Positions 4,855 through 24,120 of a DNA stretch of 24,272 bases are shown here, in pieces. The translations under genes and the position numbers were made by a program. The notes beneath the pieces are model-generated. The model saw only the letters and a program-made list of their open reading frames with translations. It made no database searches and had not been told where the DNA came from. Origin of the DNA: a virus; UHGV virus genome UHGV-0102815, one strand, 5' to 3'. Numbering within the stretch: position 1 is the first letter of the stretch; each line of letters begins with the position of its first letter.

Positions 4855-5228
4855 GCTGCTACCTGTTGCGCCATCTGATTACGGGTGATCCAGAAGGCAA
4901 TAACGGTCAGTAGATAAAAGACCAGGGTAATAGCCCACCCCGTCCAGGCGAGACTTACAACAATCAGCAATCGCATCACCCAACTGATAAATACGTTTTC
5001 TTTTCGGGTAATTGTCTTCAGTAAAGATGCCCTTAACTCCTGCCAGAGCGGGCCATTCTTAATTAACGCAGCCAGTGCTACCGGAATTACCGCCCATGTC
5101 AGCAAACAGGCTACCCAAACGCCGGACGCTGCCAGTACCGGAAAAATCCCCTGCGGATACACCATTGCTGCGATTAACAGCGCCATCCATAACATCAGAA
5201 ACAGTCCGCTGATTAATTTCTTTTTCAT
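4851..5228 (-). CDS. lysA: LysA-like membrane protein (lysis timing)
   Basis: Start at ATG 5228 (MKKKLISGLFLMLW...) preceded by GGGAG; several hydrophobic helices; the longer ORF to 5300 overlaps the endolysin and lacks an RBS. Confidence 0.75.
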   Translation of the reverse strand: MKKKLISGLFLMLWMALLIAAMVYPQGIFPVLAASGVWVACLLTWAVIPVALAALIKNGPLWQELRASLLKTITRKENVFISWVMRLLIVVSLAWTGWAITLVFYLLTVIAFWITRNQMAQQVAA

Positions 5229-5229
5229 T

Positions 5230-5742
5230 TCAGTTTGCTCCCTGTAAACACCAGGCCATCTCCCGCGCACGGCGGTTATCCAGCCCCTGATTAAACACAC
5301 CTTTTACATAAACCCAGCGCTGCAACTGTCGGCACGCATCCGCCCAGCGCCGCTGATTGAGCAATTTCACCAGCGTGGAACTGCAGGCATTGCCCGTCCC
5401 CACGTTGAAGGCAAACGACACCGCAGCGTCATACACCTTCTGCGGTGGCTGTTGCTTCACACACCTTTCCAGTGCCCGCTCCACACGCAGCACGTTGGAG
5501 ATCAGCCCTTCTGCTGCCTGTCGTTCCGTGATTGTTTTGCCGGGAATAACGCCCGATGTATTACCAATGCCGTCGGTCCAGACACCCGCGCTGCACTGAT
5601 ACGGCTGCAGACGACAGCCTTCGTAATCAGCAATCAGTTTCAGCCCCTCCACGGAGGTGTGAAGCTGCTGAAAATCCGGCAGCGTGGCAGCAATAGCCAG
5701 CACGGCCCCGACAAGGCAGCGTTTAACGATTGATGGATTCAT
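5230..5742 (-). CDS. SAR endolysin, T4-lysozyme-like (GH24) with N-terminal signal-anchor-release domain
   Basis: Gly/Ala-rich N-terminal segment CLVGAVLAIAATL, then lysozyme catalytic region ...DYEGCRLQPYQCSAGVWTDGIGNT... Confidence 0.88.
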   Translation of the reverse strand: MNPSIVKRCLVGAVLAIAATLPDFQQLHTSVEGLKLIADYEGCRLQPYQCSAGVWTDGIGNTSGVIPGKTITERQAAEGLISNVLRVERALERCVKQQPPQKVYDAAVSFAFNVGTGNACSSTLVKLLNQRRWADACRQLQRWVYVKGVFNQGLDNRRAREMAWCLQGAN

Positions 5743-5941: not shown

Positions 5942-6145
5942 TCAGTCCCATAGCTGGACGGTCTGCACGGTGGTGGTTGTCGGTATGTCCGGCAGCTCCA
6001 CCTGCAGCCCGTGAGGTAAAAAGGGGCCGTATTCGGCAAGCCCCGGATTTGCCTTCAGTACCTGCTCCGTGACACCCTGCGTGCGCCCGTAATGACGCCA
6101 GCAAAGCGCGTCCACCGTGTCATACTGATACGCACGCACTTTCAT
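5942..6145 (-). CDS. X: Tail protein gpX
   Basis: 67-aa translation ...DTVDALCWRHYGRTQGVTEQVLKANPGLAEYGPFLPHGLQVELPD... closely resembles P2 gpX. Confidence 0.88.
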   Translation of the reverse strand: MKVRAYQYDTVDALCWRHYGRTQGVTEQVLKANPGLAEYGPFLPHGLQVELPDIPTTTTVQTVQLWD

Positions 6146-6672
6146 CAGATAAGCTCCACTGTGCAGTGCGGCGCATCCTGCACCCGGCTGATGGCCCAGC
6201 GGGCGTCACGCCACAAATCACCGCTTGCTTCCGCCAGTTCCTCGCCCCGCTTCACACCGGATGCCGTGGCGTCATAGTCCTGATAACGCTCGTTGAGCAT
6301 GGCGCGTGCCCAGCAGTAAACCGCGTTGAAATAGTGATGAATGCGCTCACTTTTGCTGTCCAGCTGTTCAGCCGGAATCTCTGCCAGCGAGGAATATCCC
6401 AGCATCTGCTGGCGTCTGCGAAACTCATACAGCTCTGCGTTGACCTCCGAAATTGCCGACAGCGCAACCTGCTTTAAACGCGGCTGCGTCACCGTGCCGT
6501 CAGTGCGCATGACACTGCGAAACTCCGACAGGTCCACATCAGGCCAGAACGGCGTATTTCTGATGATTTCCGCCTGTTCCGGTGCCTGTTCTGGCGCAAC
6601 AAACTTCATGCTGCTTTCTCCTGAAATAGAGGGCGGTGGACGGGGTTTTGATGTAGCAGTGCCTTTCGCCAC
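6145..6672 (-). CDS. L: Head completion/stabilisation protein gpL
   Basis: 175-aa ORF in the gpL position between M and X; size matches. Confidence 0.82.
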   Translation of the reverse strand: MAKGTATSKPRPPPSISGESSMKFVAPEQAPEQAEIIRNTPFWPDVDLSEFRSVMRTDGTVTQPRLKQVALSAISEVNAELYEFRRRQQMLGYSSLAEIPAEQLDSKSERIHHYFNAVYCWARAMLNERYQDYDATASGVKRGEELAEASGDLWRDARWAISRVQDAPHCTVELI

Positions 6673-9409: not shown

Positions 9410-11176
9410 ATGAACACCACACTGACACCCGCAGATCTCGATCCCCGTCGGCAGGCCATGCTGCTGTACTTTCAGGGATACCGCGTAGCCCGCATTGCTG
9501 AAATGCTGGGCGAGAAAGTTGCAACCGTTCACAGCTGGAAAAAACGCGACAAGTGGGGTGACTATGGGCCGCTGGATCAGATGCAGCTCACTACCGCCGC
9601 ACGCTACTGCCAGCTCATCATGAAGGAGCACAAAGAAGGGAAAGATTTCAAAGAGATTGACCTGCTGGCGCGCCAGTCTGAGCGCCACGCGCGGATCGGC
9701 AAGTTTAACAATGGCGGCAACGAAGCCGACTTAAACCCTAACGTCGCCAACCGCAATAAAGGCCCACGCCGTCAGCCGGAAAAGAATGTTTTCACCGATG
9801 AGCAGATTGAAAAGCTGGAAGAAATCTTCCATTCCTCCATGTTCAACTACCAGCGCCACTGGTGGGAAGCCGGAAAAACCAACCGCATCCGCAACCTGCT
9901 GAAGTCACGCCAGATCGGCGCGACCTTTTACTTTGCCCGTGAAGCCCTGATTGACGCCCTGCTTACCGGACGTAACCAGATTTTCCTTTCTGCCAGTAAG
10001 GCACAGGCCCACGTCTTCAAACAGTACATCATCGACTTTGCCAAAGAAGTGGAGGTGGAGCTGAAAGGCGATCCGATGGTGCTTCCTAACGGGGCCACGC
10101 TTTACTTCCTCGGCACCAATGCCCGCACAGCCCAGAGTTATCACGGCAACCTGTATCTGGATGAATATTTCTGGATCCCAAAATTCCAGGAGTTGCGCAA
10201 AGTGGCTTCCGGTATGGCTATTCACAAGAAATGGCGACAGACCTATTTTTCCACGCCATCCAGCCTGACACACAGTGCTTATCCGTTCTGGTCCGGTGCG
10301 CTGTTCAACCGAGGGCGCAACAAAGCCGATAAGGTGGACATCGACCTGTCCCACAGCAATCTGGCCCCCGGCCTGCTGTGCGCAGACGGGCAATACCGCC
10401 AGATAGTCACCGTGGAAGATGCGGTGCGCGGCGGCTGTAACCTGTTCGACCTCGACCAGTTGCGCATGGAGTACAGCCCGGACGAATACCAGAACCTGCT
10501 GATGTGTGAGTTCGTGGACGATCTCGCGTCCGTGTTCCCGCTCAGCGAGCTGCAGGCGTGCATGGTGGACAGTTGGGAAGTCTGGACCGACTTTCATGCA
10601 CTGGCCCTGCGCCCGTTTGGCTGGCGCGAGGTGTGGATCGGTTATGACCCGGCAAAAGGTACGCAGAACGGCGACAGCGCCGGATGCGTGGTGATGGCAC
10701 CGCCAGCCGTGCCAGGCGGTAAGTTTCGCATTCTTGAGCGTCACCAGTGGCGCGGGATGGACTTCCGCGCCCAGGCTGACGCCATCAAAAAACTGACCGA
10801 ACAGTACAACGTGACCTATATCGGCATCGACTCAACAGGTGTCGGTCACGGGGTTTACGAGAACGTGAAAGCGTTCTTTCCTGCCGTCCGGGAGTTTGTC
10901 TACAACCCCAACGTTAAAAACGCCCTGGTACTCAAAGCCTACGACATTATCAGTCACCGTCGTCTGGAGTTTGACGCCGGACACACCGACATAGCGCAGT
11001 CATTTATGGCAATCCGTCGCGCCACCACCGCCAGTGGCAACCGCCCGACCTATGAAGCCAGCCGCAGCGAAGAAGCCAGCCACGCCGATCTGGCCTGGGC
11101 AACGATGCACGCACTGTTTAACGAACCGCTGCAGGGCGAGTCCGCCAATACCAGCAATATTGTGGAGATTTTTTGA
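9410..11176 (+). CDS. P: Terminase large (ATPase) subunit gpP
   Basis: 588-aa ORF divergent from O and overlapping Q by ATGA; size and position match P2 gpP. Confidence 0.92.
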   Translation: MNTTLTPADLDPRRQAMLLYFQGYRVARIAEMLGEKVATVHSWKKRDKWGDYGPLDQMQLTTAARYCQLIMKEHKEGKDFKEIDLLARQSERHARIGKFNNGGNEADLNPNVANRNKGPRRQPEKNVFTDEQIEKLEEIFHSSMFNYQRHWWEAGKTNRIRNLLKSRQIGATFYFAREALIDALLTGRNQIFLSASKAQAHVFKQYIIDFAKEVEVELKGDPMVLPNGATLYFLGTNARTAQSYHGNLYLDEYFWIPKFQELRKVASGMAIHKKWRQTYFSTPSSLTHSAYPFWSGALFNRGRNKADKVDIDLSHSNLAPGLLCADGQYRQIVTVEDAVRGGCNLFDLDQLRMEYSPDEYQNLLMCEFVDDLASVFPLSELQACMVDSWEVWTDFHALALRPFGWREVWIGYDPAKGTQNGDSAGCVVMAPPAVPGGKFRILERHQWRGMDFRAQADAIKKLTEQYNVTYIGIDSTGVGHGVYENVKAFFPAVREFVYNPNVKNALVLKAYDIISHRRLEFDAGHTDIAQSFMAIRRATTASGNRPTYEASRSEEASHADLAWATMHALFNEPLQGESANTSNIVEIF

Positions 11177-12213
11177 TGGGAAAGAGTAAGAAAAACCGCG
11201 CTGCGGCGACGAATCAGCTCAAGCATAAAAGCCAGACTTCAGCCGAAGCATTCAGCTTCGGTGATCCCGTTCCTGTACTTGACCGCCGCGAACTGCTGGA
11301 CTATGTGGAATGCGTACAGACAGATCGCTGGTATGAGCCTCCTGTCAGCTTTGACGGACTGGCGCGCACCTTCCGCGCTGCCGTGCATCACAGTTCACCA
11401 ATTGCGGTGAAATGCAACATTCTGACCAGCACCTACATCCCTCACCCGCTGCTCAGCCAGCAGGCTTTTTCGCGTTTTGTACAGGACTATCTGGTTTTTG
11501 GTAACGCCTACCTGGAAAAACGCACGAACCGCTTCGGAGAGGTCATCGCTCTTGAGCCTGCGCTGGCAAAATACACCCGACGCGGGTTAGACCTGGATAC
11601 CTACTGGTTTGTGCAATATGGTATGACAACCCAGCCGTATCAGTTCACGAAAGGCAGCATCTTTCATCTGTTGGAACCGGACATCAACCAGGAGATCTAC
11701 GGCCTGCCCGGTTATCTTTCTGCCATTCCGTCCGCTCTGCTCAACGAGTCCGCCACGCTGTTCCGCCGGAAGTATTACATTAACGGTAGTCATGCAGGCT
11801 TCATCATGTACATGACCGATGCCGCGCAAAACCAGGAGGATGTGAACAACCTCCGCAACGCAATGAAAAGCGCCAAAGGTCCAGGCAACTTCCGCAACTT
11901 GTTTATGTACTCGCCTAACGGTAAAAAAGACGGGCTTCAGATCATCCCATTGTCAGAAGTCGCGGCGAAGGATGAATTTCTTAACATCAAGAACGTGAGT
12001 CGGGATGACATGATGGCAGCGCATCGCGTGCCGCCACAAATGATGGGGATTATGCCTAATAATGTCGGGGGGTTTGGGGATGTGGAAAAAGCCGCTCGCG
12101 TTTTTGTACGTAACGAACTGCAGCCATTGCAGAAACGTATGTGCGAACTGAACGAATGGATTGAGGAAAAAGTAATAAATTTTGAAGCGTATCAGCTCTC
12201 AATTGAGCAATAA
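11173..12213 (+). CDS. Q: Portal protein gpQ
   Basis: 346-aa ORF translationally coupled to P (ATGA overlap); size and position match P2 gpQ. Confidence 0.88.
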   Translation: MMGKSKKNRAAATNQLKHKSQTSAEAFSFGDPVPVLDRRELLDYVECVQTDRWYEPPVSFDGLARTFRAAVHHSSPIAVKCNILTSTYIPHPLLSQQAFSRFVQDYLVFGNAYLEKRTNRFGEVIALEPALAKYTRRGLDLDTYWFVQYGMTTQPYQFTKGSIFHLLEPDINQEIYGLPGYLSAIPSALLNESATLFRRKYYINGSHAGFIMYMTDAAQNQEDVNNLRNAMKSAKGPGNFRNLFMYSPNGKKDGLQIIPLSEVAAKDEFLNIKNVSRDDMMAAHRVPPQMMGIMPNNVGGFGDVEKAARVFVRNELQPLQKRMCELNEWIEEKVINFEAYQLSIEQ

Positions 12214-12245
12214 CTCTCAAATAGCTGAATAAGCCCGCAAAAGCT

Positions 12246-12271
12246 AACCTATAGATCAGGGTCTATAGGTT
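12246..12271 (-). terminator. Perfect 10-bp inverted repeat hairpin at the 3' end of the cargo operon, possibly bidirectional with Q
   Basis: aacctataga-tcaggg-tctataggtt; on the minus strand it is followed by agcTTTTgcg; the stop codon of the 215-aa cargo gene lies inside the stem. Confidence 0.45.
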
Positions 12272-12896
12272 TATGATGTAATGATACAGGATAATGCACA
12301 ACTTGATAATCCAGCTTACTTACAGTATGAAGGTGCTGACTATAAAAAACCAAGGGGTTTTTTGGGCAATCAATAATATTAACGGATTTACAAGCATGAA
12401 TCCTAGGTGCATTCTTTGATAAGAATGTTTTCCATGAATCCATCATGTCAGAACAGGAAGCGTTTTTCGTATAAATAATTAAACCACCCGAAGAGCTATT
12501 TATAGTCCCAGTACTATACCGCTCGGTAAGTTGTGCATAACCTTTAAAAAGATATAAATATGAAGAATGTTTTTTAGCTTCCCCATGCCAGATATAATCT
12601 GCAAGGGTAATAGATATATCACAATGTCCTCTCTGGTTCTTCTCGTGACTGGCTTCGAGCCCCAGATATCTATTTTCAATATACGAAAGCAAATATAGAG
12701 TTAACTGATCTTCAGAGAGATCAAAGTTAATTTTATTGCCATTTTGCTCTAATTTACTTACAGCGTAATCCAGCTCCTTTCGAACAAGACTGTTGAAATT
12801 AGAATAGGACTCCAACGCAAATTGAATCCTTTGAATGGCAAAGTGAACCTTCTGCAAATGAAAGTTTTTCTCCAAATCATCCAGACTTGTAAGCAT
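12249..12896 (-). CDS. Cargo operon gene 3: hypothetical protein, 215 aa, no confident family assignment (weak PD-(D/E)xK-like motif)
   Basis: Long ORF in AT-rich DNA; start ATG overlaps the upstream gene's stop (TAATG); segment CDISITLADYIWHGEAKK loosely resembles a nuclease D...ExK motif. Confidence 0.7.
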   Translation of the reverse strand: MLTSLDDLEKNFHLQKVHFAIQRIQFALESYSNFNSLVRKELDYAVSKLEQNGNKINFDLSEDQLTLYLLSYIENRYLGLEASHEKNQRGHCDISITLADYIWHGEAKKHSSYLYLFKGYAQLTERYSTGTINSSSGGLIIYTKNASCSDMMDSWKTFLSKNAPRIHACKSVNIIDCPKNPLVFYSQHLHTVSKLDYQVVHYPVSLHHKPIDPDL

Positions 12897-13324
12897 TAGT
12901 ACGCCCCTTCCTTTGTGAAATTAATAACTGTAAAGAAAGGAAATACATATTTTTTGTAGTCTGGCACAATCTCACCAGTATATGGATGCTCTAAACCTTG
13001 ATTATCTTCAGCATCAATCACGTCCGCAATGCTTATATTAACTGGATCGAAACCATCGTCTATAAATTGATAGTTTAATTTCAAAAAATTAACTTTTGGA
13101 TTACACAAAACTTGGATAGCCAAGTAAATATCATGCTCATCCACTTTAGCGCCCCCCTTATTCGAAATCGCTATATCAAATAAAAGGTTATAACTAATGA
13201 ATATATTAGGAGAGCGAGCTGCTAACTTTGCAAGTTTTTCATAAAACATGCACGCCAAAACTCCCACTTCTGGGCGTTCTGAGCATATGTCTTGTATAGT
13301 CTTTGCCAAGTTAGCATCCTTCAT
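12896..13324 (-). CDS. Cargo operon gene 2: hypothetical protein, 142 aa, function unknown
   Basis: ORF with CTGGAG Shine-Dalgarno 6 nt upstream of ATG 13324; AT-rich; no recognisable motif. Confidence 0.7.
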   Translation of the reverse strand: MKDANLAKTIQDICSERPEVGVLACMFYEKLAKLAARSPNIFISYNLLFDIAISNKGGAKVDEHDIYLAIQVLCNPKVNFLKLNYQFIDDGFDPVNISIADVIDAEDNQGLEHPYTGEIVPDYKKYVFPFFTVINFTKEGAY

Positions 13325-13336
13325 TTTTGTCTCCAG

Positions 13337-14443
13337 CTATAGTATCAGCTTCGTAAGCGTTTCGAAATCATCACGAGAGATACATTTACTAAGTATAGCA
13401 AAATTCACTGGTGAACCAGAGCTTCCACCAAGGTACCGTCTTAGCGTTCCTGGTATAGTAAGTTCTACATTGTCCGCTAACTGTAGTAAAGGATTTGTTC
13501 GCTCAACCCTGATGCCTATCCTATAAAGTCCGATATTGCCTACGGCTTTAATACCTTCTTGATTGAAGATATCTTGTCTCAAATCTTTAGTGGAGTCAGT
13601 TTTCCTTTCCTTATGTGTTGTCCCTTCAGGGGTAAGGAATGAAAGCTCAAAAACTTTATAATTAAGAGTTGAGTATGGTTTTTGATCTTGCTTAAAGATT
13701 GGTTCAATCAAGGGAAAGAAATCTCTTTCTTTTGATGCAAACTCAGCACCTATAATATTATAAAGTTCTCTTACTACAGTACTCTTTGCAAACAAGACGC
13801 TCTCACCTATTGTATTAATACCTGCATCTATCAAAATAGAGATAGTAGAGTTGGTCTTATTAAAAATGCACACATCAAAACATTGATGCTTTTCTTTTTT
13901 AGTAGCAATGATCTCTTCGTAGCCACTGTACTGCGGTAAACTTTTAGGCGAAATCCGCTCTCTAATTTTTTGCTCTCTAACGGAACTAAATAGAGCTAAA
14001 GCCTGATTATTGCTCTCAGAATAATGAACTAAGTTTATTTTATTCTTCCCCGACGCATTAATTTCCTGCTCAGAAAGGATTACATCTGAGGCGACAGAAG
14101 GCTGTTCAGATAAATCCCACTTTAATTTCATAGCCTTTGTTAGCGAGGAAATTATTTGGTTGTCTACTGATAAACAAAAAAAAGCTTTATCACCGTAGAC
14201 CAATTGACCAAATATTAAATTATTTACAGACCTTATGATATCATTAAATTTATTTAAATTCTTTTCCTTTAATTCTGTTAATTCTTCCAGTATTTTTCCA
14301 TGAGTAGCATCTCTACCTTTACCACGAGCTAATCCAAGAGCTGAAATAACAGGTTTTGCCACGTTCCATGGAAATCTCGTGATTAGTGTCAAAATGGATT
14401 TCATTTCTGCTTCACTAAGTACTACTGGGACATTTCCTGTCAT
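13337..14443 (-). CDS. Cargo operon gene 1: hypothetical protein, about 368 aa, with a possible trypsin-like serine-protease signature near the C-terminus
   Basis: Start placed at ATG 14443 (MTGNVPVV...); the track's longer ORF begins at GTG 14470 with no RBS; motif LGGSSGSPV resembles the GxSGxPV catalytic-serine signature of S1 peptidases. Confidence 0.7.
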   Translation of the reverse strand: MTGNVPVVLSEAEMKSILTLITRFPWNVAKPVISALGLARGKGRDATHGKILEELTELKEKNLNKFNDIIRSVNNLIFGQLVYGDKAFFCLSVDNQIISSLTKAMKLKWDLSEQPSVASDVILSEQEINASGKNKINLVHYSESNNQALALFSSVREQKIRERISPKSLPQYSGYEEIIATKKEKHQCFDVCIFNKTNSTISILIDAGINTIGESVLFAKSTVVRELYNIIGAEFASKERDFFPLIEPIFKQDQKPYSTLNYKVFELSFLTPEGTTHKERKTDSTKDLRQDIFNQEGIKAVGNIGLYRIGIRVERTNPLLQLADNVELTIPGTLRRYLGGSSGSPVNFAILSKCISRDDFETLTKLIL

Positions 14444-14586
14444 CTTAATTACCTGTTGAAATTGCAACACAAGGTCGTCTTCGGGAGATCAATGGGAGTA
14501 TTCCAATAACTTACCCAGGTATAGGAGTGCTTTCAAGTCTAAGACTATCTTCTGTCTAACAGCGCATGTTTTCATCTAAGCGCGCG

Positions 14587-14605
14587 CTCGTATCCCCGCC
14601 ACGCC
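14587..14605 (-). other. Candidate cos site (cohesive-end sequence)
   Basis: Minus strand reads GGCGTGGCGGGGATACGAG, close to the 186/P2 cohesive-end sequences as I recall them; GC-rich island between the cargo operon and the SOS operon. Confidence 0.45.
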
Positions 14606-14650
14606 TGCCCGCTTTATGTAGTGGTTTTCATGCACCTGCATGATCTACGC

Positions 14651-14675
14651 AAAAGCCCGCCAGTTCTGGCGGGCC
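14651..14675 (-). terminator. Rho-independent terminator downstream of the DinI-like gene
   Basis: GC-rich hairpin gcccgccag...ctggcgggc; the minus-strand transcript is followed by TTTTGCG. Confidence 0.55.
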
Positions 14676-14809
14676 TTAGCAAAAACGATCCTCAAACGAT
14701 CATGCGATCTCATGCGGCATAGACATGCACTACAGAGCTAACGCCTCGCAAGGGCTCGTTGTTCAACCTTGCTGACGCCAGAAGCAAGTTCAGACGCCAG
14801 CAACGTTTC

Positions 14810-15043
14810 TTAATGCAGCCAGCTGTCGTCTTCCCACACCTTCTGCATAATTTTCATCACTTGTTTTCTTTCTTCGTCCAGTTGCAGTCCGGTTAGTTCC
14901 ACACCGTTAGAGCTACCTTTGCGAATGCGAATTACCGTTTTGGGATACAGGGGGCGCAGATTGCGGTAAAGCTCGGATTCAAGGGCGTCCAGGGTAGACT
15001 GGCTAATCTTCTGCTCTTTATCGATCATTATTTCAATGCGCAT
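14810..15043 (-). CDS. DinI-family protein (Tum-like antirepressor domain), SOS-induced
   Basis: Translation from MRIEIMIDKEQ...ALESELYRNLRPLYP...QKVWEDDSWLH resembles DinI and the C-terminal part of 186 Tum; strong GAGGTGA RBS 5 nt upstream of ATG 15043. Confidence 0.8.
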   Translation of the reverse strand: MRIEIMIDKEQKISQSTLDALESELYRNLRPLYPKTVIRIRKGSSNGVELTGLQLDEERKQVMKIMQKVWEDDSWLH

Positions 15044-20730: not shown

Positions 20731-20819
20731 AAGGCAACATTCCTTCTAGATATGGCTTGTGGCGAGCCGTTGTTTGTCGTGATTAGTAGTGAAGGCTCCA
20801 AAAGAAGACTTCTGGTTCA

Positions 20820-20848
20820 ACTTTAAGATCGCTTTTGGAATCTGTCAA
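20820..20848 (-). promoter_or_regulatory. Candidate lytic promoter pR (-35 TTGACA, 17-bp spacer, -10 TAAAGT) directed toward apl
   Basis: Minus strand reads TTGACA-gattccaaaagcgatct-TAAAGT; flanked by imperfect repeats of TTTTGGA(A/T)T that could be operator sites. Confidence 0.4.
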
Positions 20849-20875
20849 CGAATTTTGGATTTCTTTGGAGGATTT

Positions 20876-21445
20876 GTGGATTTCAATAGCGGCGGTAAGA
20901 AAGCCATAGAACGTTTGGTTGAAGCATACGGGTTCGGTACCCGTCAGGCTCTCTGTGATCATTTAGGTGTTTCTAAGAGCACCATGGCAACGCGTTATAT
21001 GCGTGATATTTTTCCGGCAGATTGGGTAATCCAGTGCGCCCTTGAAACGGGTACCTCGCTTAATTGGCTAACAACAGGGCATGGTTCAAAGCAAGCATCA
21101 GCAAATACAAATACTATAGAAGTAGTAAAATATTTATTGTCTGATGGAGCATTGCAGGAAGACGGTTTTTATATTTTTGATAAGGGATTTCTACCCTCTA
21201 CGTTTAAAAAACCTTTTGTCATCACAGATAACAATTCTGAATTTATTTGTGATAAAGAATTTGATGATATACGTGATGGTAAATGGGTAATAAGTATTGA
21301 TGGCGAAATAACAATCCGCGACATCACTCGTTTACCCGGTGGAAGAATTTTCGTTGAAGGTGGAAACAGAGCCTTCGAGTGCAAGATAGAAGATGTTGAA
21401 ATAATTGGAAAAATTATAAGCTTAACAGTTAAGTATGTTAGATAA
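20876..21445 (+). CDS. cI: CI-like immunity repressor (186 CI type)
   Basis: Start placed at GTG 20876 after GGAGGA; translation ...EAYGFGTRQALCDHLGVSKSTMATRYMR...CALETGTSLNWLTTGHG... and C-terminal ...WVISIDGEITIRDITRLPGGRIFVEGG... resemble 186 CI. Confidence 0.8.
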   Translation: MDFNSGGKKAIERLVEAYGFGTRQALCDHLGVSKSTMATRYMRDIFPADWVIQCALETGTSLNWLTTGHGSKQASANTNTIEVVKYLLSDGALQEDGFYIFDKGFLPSTFKKPFVITDNNSEFICDKEFDDIRDGKWVISIDGEITIRDITRLPGGRIFVEGGNRAFECKIEDVEIIGKIISLTVKYVR

Positions 21446-21460
21446 TACCTGGAGGAAACT

Positions 21461-21643
21461 ATGCTTGGTAAGTTTTTTTTTGTGGTTTTATCATGCTCTT
21501 TGCTATTAAACCCACTAACTACCTATGCTAAAAATTATCCTTGTTCTGGGAAAAAGGGAGGTGTCTCTCACTGTACCTCTGATGGAAAATTTGTTTGCAA
21601 TGATGGAACCATCAGTAAATCCAAAAAAACATGCATCAAATAA
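21461..21643 (+). CDS. Small cysteine-rich exported peptide (60-aa precursor)
   Basis: Strong RBS (GGAGGaaact-ATG); N-terminal signal peptide with likely cleavage after TYA; predicted mature 37-aa peptide is Lys-rich with four Cys. Confidence 0.5.
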
Positions 21644-21656
21644 TAAGGAAATATGA

Positions 21657-22988
21657 ATGAGCACAGATATAACTTTCGATATACGTGATGAATATAAAAG
21701 AAAAGCCATTGCAGAAAAAATAATAAGTTTGCTAGAGTCTAATATTCCTGTTTCACCTATGGTCATAGATGGGGACTGGGGGACTGGAAAAACAGAGTTT
21801 TCAAAAAAGTTAGCATCCTTAATTGAAATAAACTCGACCAATCATAAAGTAATTTATATAGATGCTTTTACTGAAGATCACAACGATGCTCCCATACTTA
21901 CAATAATGGCCGCAATTGCAGCTCTATATAATAGCGATGAAAAAAAGGAATTAATATCTAAGGCATTGCCAGCCCTCAGATTCGGACTTAAGACTGTACT
22001 CAAAGCTGGTGCTGGTTGGGTATTAAAACAAAATGCGGATGAAATTAATAAGGAATTTGAAGAGGTTATCAAAGACGCTGCAAATTCAGCTATCGATGGA
22101 ACCATCGAGGCTCTGTTAGAAGATCATATCGAGGCACAAAAGAACGTTCTTGCTCTAAAAGAAGTACTAACCAAATTAGCTGGAGAAAGTAAACTAACAA
22201 TAATTATAGATGAGTTAGACAGATGTAAGCCTAGTTTTGCCATTTCTATTATTGAAAATATAAAACATGTTTTTGATATAAAAAACATTAACTTTTTATT
22301 AATTGCAAACACAACTCAACTAAAAGCATCCATAAATCATATCTATGGCTCTTCTGTAGACTCCAACCGTTATCTTGACAAATTTATAAAATTTACATAC
22401 AGCCTTCCTGTTACCTTTAAGGAAGATAATTATAATGATACTTTAACTTCCAAAAATCATTGGATGATGCTATGTGAGCAATCTGAAAGGCTGACCGCTG
22501 CAGTAGAAGCCAGCGAAGATATTTTCTTACAGTTCATTGAAAGTAGAAAATTATCATTACGTGAGGTTGAAACACTTGCTAGATATGTTGAAATATACCA
22601 ACTACTATCAGGCGACAAAATTAGCAACAAATATATTTATGGATATTGTTATTACAGGACTCTAGCGATAATAATCTACACTTTTAACCGAGAGTTAGCT
22701 CTCAACTTTCTTGAAGATAAAGTTGATGCTCAATCAATCATGAAATTGTTTGGTTTATCTAAATTTTCATATCAAACAAGTGAATATAATGTAGATAATT
22801 ATGAATATGCTATATTTGGAATAGTTTACAAATACTTATCTGAAAACTCATCTCTTTTACCTGCTGAGGAAAATATAAAAAGACAATGGGCAGAAATGAG
22901 TGAATACCATTTTTTAAAAGGTGGTGGCGGTATTGGTGAACCAACAAATATTGTGAAAGATGCTTTAAAAGTTTTTTTACTTCAGTGA
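21657..22988 (+). CDS. KAP-family P-loop NTPase
   Basis: Walker A GDWGTGKT and Walker B IIIDELDRC separated by a long insert, typical of KAP NTPases; AT-rich; inserted between cI and int. Confidence 0.8.
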   Translation: MSTDITFDIRDEYKRKAIAEKIISLLESNIPVSPMVIDGDWGTGKTEFSKKLASLIEINSTNHKVIYIDAFTEDHNDAPILTIMAAIAALYNSDEKKELISKALPALRFGLKTVLKAGAGWVLKQNADEINKEFEEVIKDAANSAIDGTIEALLEDHIEAQKNVLALKEVLTKLAGESKLTIIIDELDRCKPSFAISIIENIKHVFDIKNINFLLIANTTQLKASINHIYGSSVDSNRYLDKFIKFTYSLPVTFKEDNYNDTLTSKNHWMMLCEQSERLTAAVEASEDIFLQFIESRKLSLREVETLARYVEIYQLLSGDKISNKYIYGYCYYRTLAIIIYTFNRELALNFLEDKVDAQSIMKLFGLSKFSYQTSEYNVDNYEYAIFGIVYKYLSENSSLLPAEENIKRQWAEMSEYHFLKGGGGIGEPTNIVKDALKVFLLQ

Positions 22989-23067
22989 TATGTATGGCTA
23001 TACAAATTCATACATTGACACTGGTTATACATACAGTAAAAATGCTCTCCACTGGAGGGCATTTTTT

Positions 23068-24120
23068 ATGGCAGTACGAAAACTCACCACAGGAAAATGG
23101 CTTTGCGAATGTTACCCCGCCGGACGTAGTGGACGTCGTGTGCGTAAACAATTCGCCACCAAAGGCGAAGCTCTGGCTTTTGAGCGTCACACGATGGAAG
23201 AAACCGAAGCAAAGCCCTGGCTGGGTGAATCAGTGGATCGTCGAACACTGAAAGACGTGGTTGAACTATGGTTCAAACTACATGGTAAATCTCTGACTGC
23301 TGGGCAGCATGTCTATGACAAATTGCTGCTGATGGCTGACGCTCTGGGCAATCCCCTTGCAACCGATCTCACATCTAAAATGTTTGCCCATTATCGAGAT
23401 AAACGACTGACAGGTGAGATCTACTTCAGCGAGAAATGGAAGAAAGGAGCCAGCCCGGTCACCATTAACCTGGAGCAAAGCTATCTAAGTAGTGTTTTTA
23501 GCGAACTATCCCGTCTGGGCGAATGGTCGTATCCGAACCCACTGGAGAACATGCGAAAATTCACCATCGCAGAAAAAGAGATGGCATGGCTTACCCATGA
23601 GCAGATTGTTGAATTACTGGCTGATTGCAAACGTCAGGACCCAATTCTGGCACTGGTAGTTAAGATATGCTTAAGCACAGGCGCACGCTGGCGAGAAGCC
23701 GTAAATCTTACTCGTTCACAGGTGACCAAATACCGAATTACCTTTGTCAGAACGAAGGGGAAGAAAAACAGAAGCATCCCTATCAGTAAAGAGCTTTACG
23801 AAGAGATCATGGCGCTTGATGGGTTCAATTTCTTCACAGACTGCTATTTTCAATTTTTATCCGTGATGGAAAAAACGTCTATCGTGCTCCCTCGCGGTCA
23901 ACTGACACACGTTCTGCGCCATACGTTTGCGGCGCACTTCATGATGTCGGGTGGAAACATCCTGGCCTTACAAAAAATTCTCGGACACCACGATATAAAA
24001 ATGACTATGCGTTACGCACATCTGGCACCGGATCATCTGGAAACGGCGCTCCGTTTCAATCCTCTGGCAACATTGCCAAGTGGCGACAAAGTGGCGGCAG
24101 CGGTTGGCATTACCCCGTAA
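23068..24120 (+). CDS. int: Tyrosine integrase (P2/186 Int family)
   Basis: Translation from MAVRKLTTGKW...GRSGRRVRKQFATKGEALAFE resembles the P2 Int N-terminus; C-terminus has ARW, HVLRHTFAAHFM and MRYAHL (R-H-R-Y catalytic residues); start at ATG 23068 after GGAGGG. Confidence 0.93.
   Translation: MAVRKLTTGKWLCECYPAGRSGRRVRKQFATKGEALAFERHTMEETEAKPWLGESVDRRTLKDVVELWFKLHGKSLTAGQHVYDKLLLMADALGNPLATDLTSKMFAHYRDKRLTGEIYFSEKWKKGASPVTINLEQSYLSSVFSELSRLGEWSYPNPLENMRKFTIAEKEMAWLTHEQIVELLADCKRQDPILALVVKICLSTGARWREAVNLTRSQVTKYRITFVRTKGKKNRSIPISKELYEEIMALDGFNFFTDCYFQFLSVMEKTSIVLPRGQLTHVLRHTFAAHFMMSGGNILALQKILGHHDIKMTMRYAHLAPDHLETALRFNPLATLPSGDKVAAAVGITP

Follow-up and report, generated by a model that had tools for sequence, protein, structure and literature searches.

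The window examined here is the whole 24,272-nucleotide stretch of virus genome UHGV-0102815, a P2/186-like prophage, and our subject is the three-gene cassette that it carries between portal gene Q and cos, at 12214-14586. The genes are co-oriented on the minus strand: g1 (13337-14443) encodes a basic protein of 368 amino acids (aa; isoelectric point, pI, 8.7) with a predicted RdgC-like fold and is the putative DNA-binding or sensor component; g2 (12896-13324) encodes an acidic protein of 142 aa (pI 4.7) that putatively docks or regulates the nuclease; and g3 (12249-12896) encodes a 215-aa protein with a predicted PD-(D/E)xK, or restriction-endonuclease, fold and is the putative effector. We favor, with moderate confidence, the view that the cassette is a three-component anti-phage (anti-invading-DNA) defense system of this general design, carried as swappable cargo in a hotspot of the prophage.

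A first-pass annotation of this DNA had described three genes of these lengths between the Q stop codon and cos, and the open reading frames (ORFs) lie as it placed them. They are real genes rather than chance ORFs, since each has full-length homologues and the order of the triad is conserved. The ATG assigned to g1 is the start given by PGAP in identical Escherichia coli loci; a GTG further upstream would lengthen the protein to 377 aa. An AGGTAA Shine-Dalgarno sequence precedes the g1 ATG, g2 follows g1 after 12 nucleotides (nt) and has a GGAGA Shine-Dalgarno sequence of its own, and the g2 stop codon overlaps the g3 start codon in a TAATG, bearing out the translational coupling proposed earlier. 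The AT-richness noted for the cassette is likewise evident, with a guanine-plus-cytosine (GC) content of 36.2% in 12214-14586 versus 54.5% in P plus Q and 52.8% in gene A.

On one side, the cassette is bordered by gene Q (11173-12213, plus strand), which is convergent with g3 and is annotated "phage portal protein" in an identical E. coli locus; the terminase gene P (9410-11176, plus strand) lies beyond it. The border on the gene A side is a cos-like core, GGCGTGGCGGGG (GGCGTGGCGGGGATAC on the minus strand), at about 14586-14604, past which come a DinI-like gene and replication gene A. Of 27 viral loci, 21 have the same string ahead of g1, at a distance of 160-180 nt, and it is also found in the cloned P2-hotspot sequences of Table S2 in PMC9122126. 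A relaxed scan finds a candidate sigma-70 promoter for the operon at 14508-14536 on the minus strand (TTGAAA-17 nt-TAAGTT, 8/12 matches). At the other end, the perfect 10-bp hairpin reported by the first-pass annotation exists at 12246-12271, as an inverted repeat on the minus strand (12246-12255 and 12262-12271) with a 6-nt loop. Because it overlaps the g3 stop codon and is followed on the minus strand by only four T's, it would make no more than a weak intrinsic terminator, or possibly an RNA-stabilizing hairpin; a terminator scan of the region does not call it, and an Rfam search of the region matched no family.

The gene A side of cos has features of its own. Just past cos, at 14649-14680, lies a 15-bp imperfect inverted repeat (GCAAAAGCCCGCCAG / CTGGCGGGCCTTAGC, 87% complementary) of terminator-like appearance. 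In the otherwise identical prophage of E. coli GW-AmxH19 (L001 8735-9160), an additional gene for a 141-aa hypothetical protein, WP_000834899, is situated between cos and the DinI-like gene; 14604-14810 of the window holds no counterpart, indicating that variation on the gene A side of cos is independent of that on the Q side.

Predicted folds of g3 and g1

Searches of g1, g2 and g3 against Pfam, NCBIfam and PADLOC profiles gave no match, and the same was true of their family members against Pfam and PADLOC. Nothing was found by PDB sequence searches with g1 alone or with family profiles of all three proteins, nor by a literature search by protein accession and PHROG identifier; the sole matches in PHROGs were to groups of unknown function. 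The first-pass annotation, which recognized none of the three proteins, was thus right as far as these profile libraries go, but it missed that the g2 domain is common to Type ISP restriction-modification enzymes and that g2 and g3 make up a portable module.

For g3, the AlphaFold2 model (predicted local distance difference test score, pLDDT, 91.5; predicted template modeling score, pTM, 0.87) has an alpha-beta-beta-beta-alpha-beta restriction-endonuclease core in which D93 opens strand beta2 and E106-x-K108 falls within beta3. The closest folds are those of the Type IIP restriction enzymes OkrAI (score 9.4), BamHI (9.0), BstYI (8.9) and BglII (8.6), followed by the CdiA-CT EC869 DNase (7.3) and McrC (6.8) and, lower, by NucS, Can2, NucC, HamA, the LlaBIII nuclease domain and SduA. 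Across 28 g3 sequences, which extend to 32% identity and include copies linked to Type ISP enzymes, residues E62, D63, G90, D93, E106, A107 and K108 are invariant, so that the catalytic D...(D/E)xK motif is conserved along with the core fold. Thus, g3 is a predicted PD-(D/E)xK restriction-type nuclease. The D...EAK string had been flagged earlier as a weak nuclease-like motif; the nuclease lead is confirmed and strengthened by the invariance of the motif and by the fold, and the qualifier "weak" no longer applies. Identity between g3 and the BamHI, OkrAI, BstYI and BglII enzymes is nevertheless only 6-12%, and unlike them g3 has no cognate methyltransferase in the cassette, has an additional helical region (about 60 aa) at its N-terminus and comes with a g2 domain in every case.

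The predicted fold of g1 is RdgC-like, consisting of mixed alpha/beta domains with both the base and the center domains of RdgC, and two methods agree on this assignment; structural matches in BFVD are annotated RdgC or exonuclease. RdgC is a ring-forming, sequence-non-specific DNA binder that in E. coli modulates RecA, and the lambda protein RexA, sensor of the Rex exclusion system, has been reported to share weak structural similarity with it (PMC11077077). YejK, a DNA clamp, resembles RdgC weakly and through its N-domain only (PMC11229321), and YejK-like proteins are the sensors of the PANGU system (bioRxiv 10.64898/2026.04.06.716658). Like RdgC, g1 may form a ring-shaped, DNA-binding dimer with a basic pore; the protein is basic, and K86 and R289 are conserved. 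In an alignment of 39 family members reaching down to about 18% identity, the invariant or nearly invariant positions are K86, D190, D206, F269, R289, G297 and G332, of which D190 (about 13874-13876) and D206 (about 13826-13828) sit on neighboring predicted strands (QCFD and ILID). When 1.84 billion representatives were searched with a family profile, about 425 clusters at 50% identity emerged, nearly all of them single-domain proteins 340-390 aa long; the ones checked for annotation are called hypothetical.

The first-pass annotation had instead likened a C-terminal LGGSSGSPV string in g1 to the catalytic-serine signature of trypsin-like S1 peptidases. The string is present, at residues 338-346, and is the one feature that would suggest a protease sensor or activator licensing g3; such a role has next to no probability left, being refuted at the level of both conservation and fold. 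Among 26 relatives of at least 40% identity the third serine of GSSGSPV is not conserved (it is G, C, T, V, A or N among those of at least 46%, and varies even in relatives at or above 50%), and in the 39-member alignment the motif is gone from the consensus and there is no invariant His/Asp/Ser triad. With no peptidase match in Pfam and an RdgC-like fold in place of a double beta-barrel, we rejected assignment of g1 to the S1/PA-clan serine peptidases.

Conservation of the triad and its link to Type ISP enzymes

Among 5426 complete E. coli genomes, six contain DNA at least 99% identical to the cassette, as does a record named Klebsiella phage KP12; in every case it is annotated as three hypothetical proteins. 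Counting alleles at about 66% nucleotide identity, the cassette family is found in 27 of the 5426, a rarity that agrees with the horizontal acquisition proposed from its base composition; neither is the cassette conserved core of related phages, for it is missing from most P2-like phages. All 27 IMG/VR loci found with g1 keep the order g1-g2-g3, and 21 of them show the order cos-cassette-Q of P2-like phages. Divergence of the cassette is uncoupled from that of the phage core: in one locus (L040), identity to the window is 97% for A, 94% for Q and 99% for P but just 59% for g1 and 62% for g3, and in another (L036) P is 100% and g1 63% identical. Allele swapping of this kind has been described as the behavior of defense cargo in these phages (PMC13586616).

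The triad is also kept in order well beyond P2-like phages, in eight genomic lineages (Bradyrhizobium, Alteromonas and Ca. Schmidhempelia among them) and in loci L048-L051; instances further include Pantoea, Rosenbergiella, Plesiomonas, Klebsiella and metagenomic contigs. In Bradyrhizobium, the three proteins measure 352, 137 and 259 aa and adjoin an integrase and a SIR2_2 gene, and elsewhere too the neighbors are integrases, SIR2_2 and HipA modules. A metagenome scan, run with a narrower g1 alignment as broad ones proved too divergent, returned 17 loci with g1 homologues 20-25% identical to that of the window; g2 and g3 follow in order in all 12 that have enough downstream sequence, the remaining five being contigs that end early. 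Compared by sequence, the three genes behave as an obligate unit of fixed order that extends from Enterobacterales to Alphaproteobacteria, and across Proteobacteria they stay together even at about 20% identity.

Six cassette loci lie in lambdoid prophages (L006, L023, L029, L030, L039 and L042), where there is no cos and the neighbors are replication protein O, ParB-HTH, DnaC-like, antiterminator Q, tail fiber and S-pyocin genes. Just downstream of g3, these loci retain a fragment of about 75 aa from the C-terminus of portal protein Q, at 58-61% identity (for example, L023 8272-8496), a remnant that suggests capture of the lambdoid cassettes from a P2-like phage. Two other observations concern individual loci. 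In Klebsiella sp. I138 and two metagenomic contigs, g1 is split into two ORFs (L006 3410-4554; L063 1700-4011; L064 3968-5189), which may reflect a frameshift, a pseudogene or an assembly error. A 2.9-kb contig labeled as a Turicibacter sp. metagenome-assembled genome (L007, JBOFCV010000430.1) carries a cos-cassette-Q arrangement of Enterobacterales type, with g1 60% and Q 80% identical to those of the window, and its Firmicute label is probably a binning contamination.

This distribution bears on the idea that the cassette is a DNA-metabolism or recombination module of benefit to the phage, in which an RdgC-like RecA modulator and a nuclease would aid replication or recombination of the prophage itself, or counter host systems. 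RdgC homologues are common in phage genomes, the BFVD matches of g1 carry RdgC or exonuclease annotations, and E. coli RdgC does act on RecA (PMC11077077). Yet a module serving the phage itself fits poorly with a cassette that most P2-like phages lack, that is swapped independently of their core and that also occupies non-phage chromosomal sites and islands; moreover, g3 is BamHI-like rather than lambda-Exo-, RecB- or Cas4-like, and g2 and g3 are tied to restriction enzymes. We regard this explanation as very unlikely.

The tie to restriction enzymes comes from a second genomic context of the g3 family, which reaches Alphaproteobacteria at 32-40% identity. There, a Type ISP restriction-modification enzyme comes first, and its stop codon is overlapped by the g3 homologue. 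Two of these enzymes are complete, with 1773-1774 aa and the domains Mrr_cat_2, ResIII, Helicase_C, ISP_coupler, N6_Mtase and Type_ISP_C; the others run past the fetched loci and were read as about 1600 aa. In a Pararhizobium variant, a 1026-aa ResIII protein and an adjoining Eco57I-type methylase stand in this position. The loci of this context are L003/L004/L011, L012, L013, L015, L045-L047 (g3 homologue at about 5001-5500 or 6001-6621) and L017, the split ResIII/Eco57I-methylase version included.

Past Type_ISP_C, the last 130 or so residues of the enzyme are homologous to g2. A g2 profile finds the enzyme tails by hmmsearch at E values of 9e-6 and 5e-4, and hhalign aligns the g2 family with them over 126 columns at 96.8% probability (E 2.2e-10). 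In the converse search, a tail profile reached free-standing g2 proteins (E 1e-22); the g2 profile, for its part, also hit a further ISP enzyme in its tail (E 4e-8). By sequence, no g2-like domain was seen in the solved Type ISP enzymes LlaBIII and LlaGI. The stop-start overlap of g2, as gene or as domain, with g3 recurs in the examined examples of both contexts, and the g2 domain and g3 read as a conserved, translationally coupled pair whose partner is g1 in one context and a DNA-translocating restriction enzyme in the other. Because g2 corresponds to a C-terminal domain of Type ISP enzymes that are directly followed by g3 homologues, the pair looks like a module of docking domain plus nuclease; by Rosetta-stone logic, with the same pair attached to one partner or the other, the most likely role of g2 is to bind g3 and connect it with whichever partner engages the DNA. 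A separate frame at L055 5227-6441 contains a g2-like match in about 405 codons instead of about 140, and may be a longer or fused g2 variant.

The attachment to Type ISP enzymes also speaks to a toxin-antitoxin or addiction module, with g3 as DNase toxin, g2 as its acidic, translationally coupled antitoxin and g1 as regulator or third component, which would stabilize the prophage or island. A g1 homologue of about 350 aa accompanies every free-standing instance, though it would be superfluous for a simple toxin-antitoxin pair, and a g2 domain that is covalently part of an enzyme of about 1770 aa fits docking better than it fits a labile antitoxin. We consider this account improbable, although it is not exclusive of defense, since many toxin-antitoxin systems are defense systems themselves.

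Closer to the defense reading, and indeed a sub-variant of it that differs in the outcome for the cell, is a direct restriction-like system that acts without abortive infection: g1 would serve as recognition subunit or clamp, g3 would cleave and g2 would join them, with modification status (as in Type IV enzymes), topology or DNA ends as the discriminating feature and no cognate methyltransferase. The folds nearest to g3, those of Type IIP enzymes and McrC, are in keeping with this possibility, as are the company of g2 and g3 with bona fide Type ISP enzymes and the finding that the triad, where it occurs in unrelated contexts, is not accompanied by a methyltransferase. Nothing in g1, however, points to sequence or modification specificity, its ring-clamp relatives bind DNA non-specifically (PMC11077077, PMC11229321), and a solitary, unregulated endonuclease would be toxic; we accordingly rate direct restriction in this strict form as a minority possibility.

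The hotspot and the proposed function

The first-pass annotation was correct in treating the site as a variable, cos-proximal locus, but not in the novelty this implied: the gpA-gpQ interval around cos is a published defense hotspot of P2-like phages with 1,650 gene arrangements (PMC9122126), whose status has been validated (PMC9122126, PMC13586616). Systems validated there include old/tin, DUF4238, a three-gene 'hp+hp+hp' and DprA-PRTase (PMC9122126). The cassette sits between Q and gene A and varies between otherwise similar phages, as expected of hotspot cargo, and the three proteins of the window (WP_032254892, WP_042050665 and WP_042050668) appear as hypothetical cargo in Table S5 of that study. 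The location, the overall principle (a sensor plus a nuclease, carried as cargo in a prophage hotspot) and the locus itself, catalogued as hypothetical, are therefore already known, and candidate systems of this sort are numerous. In the libraries and literature searched, we found no description of the three families, of an architecture of RdgC fold, adaptor and nuclease, or of the link between g2 plus g3 and Type ISP enzymes.

Taken together, the hotspot location, low GC content, rarity, allele swapping, conservation of the triad, its neighbors, the motif and fold of g3, the fold of g1 and the Type ISP link make a defense role plausible, and the sensor-plus-effector reading offered by the first-pass annotation remains the best one for this putative function. 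Under this proposal, g1 would bind or encircle DNA, probably as a dimeric clamp, and act as the sensor or targeting subunit, while g2 would tether or dock g3 to its partner and perhaps restrain it. Loading of g1 on invading DNA, for example at free ends or at replication or recombination intermediates, could be the trigger; alternatively, damage to host DNA could set g1 free from it, as in PANGU. On infection, g3 would then be licensed to cut DNA, and either the invader would be destroyed directly or the infected cell would be killed (abortive infection). Our confidence in any specific trigger is much lower than in the general design. A bolder version, which we think unlikely, holds that g1 represents a new family of ring-clamp sensors that tell foreign DNA from self by its topology, threading onto free ends or onto replication or recombination intermediates of injected phage DNA, and recruit the nuclease through g2, a domain that Type ISP motors captured; were it true, the pair would be a pluggable 'docking domain plus nuclease' cassette for DNA-tracking proteins and would provide a methylation-independent route to restriction.

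Several points weigh against the defense interpretation. The proposed function is read from gene content and predicted folds, and the link between g1 and RdgC is one of fold only: by hhalign, the g1 family profile matches E. coli RdgC at 1.3% probability and YejK at 0.2%, and a Pfam search of the 39 g1 members at E values up to 5 gave no match, including to RdgC (PF04381) and NdpA/YejK (PF04245). On these grounds, we rejected membership of g1 in the RdgC or YejK/PANGU sequence families. The conserved D190 and D206 are unexpected for a purely structural DNA clamp, and g1 could be an enzyme. A stricter scan of the region, at the standard consensus threshold, calls no promoter. Hotspots of P2-like phages carry non-defense cargo as well, such as partition systems and toxins (PMC9122126), and the cassette appears not to be among the systems cloned and tested in that study, since the N-termini of its proteins are absent from those supplementary files that were searched.

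Comparison with characterized systems places the cassette near several of them. Lambda RexAB is likewise prophage-encoded and pairs an RdgC-similar sensor, a non-specific DNA binder, with a separate effector; it is expressed from the lysogen and excludes other phages (PMC11077077). The cassette has no PADLOC match to it, and the partners of g1 are a probably soluble acidic protein and a predicted nuclease, whereas that of RexA is the membrane protein RexB. PANGU likewise has a ring- or clamp-like DNA-binding sensor in an operon with interchangeable toxic effectors, and Cluster 3 of the preprint comprises nucleoid-associated protein (NAP) operons with two downstream hypothetical proteins (10.64898/2026.04.06.716658). 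Its sensor, however, belongs to the NdpA/YejK family (IPR007358 / PF04245), to which g1 does not belong by sequence and from which it departs structurally in being nearer RdgC; PANGU is also bicistronic as defined, and the effectors tested for it, a toxSAS and a membrane protein, include no nuclease. Type ISP enzymes of the LlaGI/LlaBIII type are related through g2 and g3: g2 is homologous to the additional C-terminal domain of the alphaproteobacterial enzymes, and g3 to the gene coupled to them downstream, but the window lacks helicase, methyltransferase and target-recognition domains, and g1 takes the place of the motor.

Rst_3HP of E. coli E1114 shares with the cassette the same hotspot, a cos-proximal position and three genes without recognizable domains (PMC9122126). 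Its proteins measure 349, 364 and 227 aa, and in an all-against-all blastp comparison none matched those of the cassette at better than E 4; in the cloned sequence, Rst_3HP moreover appears on the gene A side of cos, as opposed to the Q side. We therefore rejected identity of the cassette with Rst_3HP.

If the cassette proves protective, it would constitute a defense system built from three families without a Pfam, NCBIfam or PADLOC model, would supply three new models for annotation pipelines and defense finders, and would explain one of the P2-hotspot arrangements recorded as three hypothetical proteins. RdgC-fold binders would then join RexA and the YejK-like proteins of PANGU as a third group of infection sensors that resemble DNA clamps. 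The portable module of docking domain plus nuclease shared with Type ISP enzymes offers in addition a concrete way to study how effector nucleases are brought in and prevented from doing harm.

The same prophage has a second AT-rich island (33.5% GC) at 21000-23000, between the CI repressor gene (20789-21445) and the integrase gene (22990-24120). An ORF within it, at 21657-22988 on the plus strand, encodes a 443-aa KAP-family P-loop NTPase (PF07693, E 4.7e-53), and the island is another slot for cargo and candidate defense genes.

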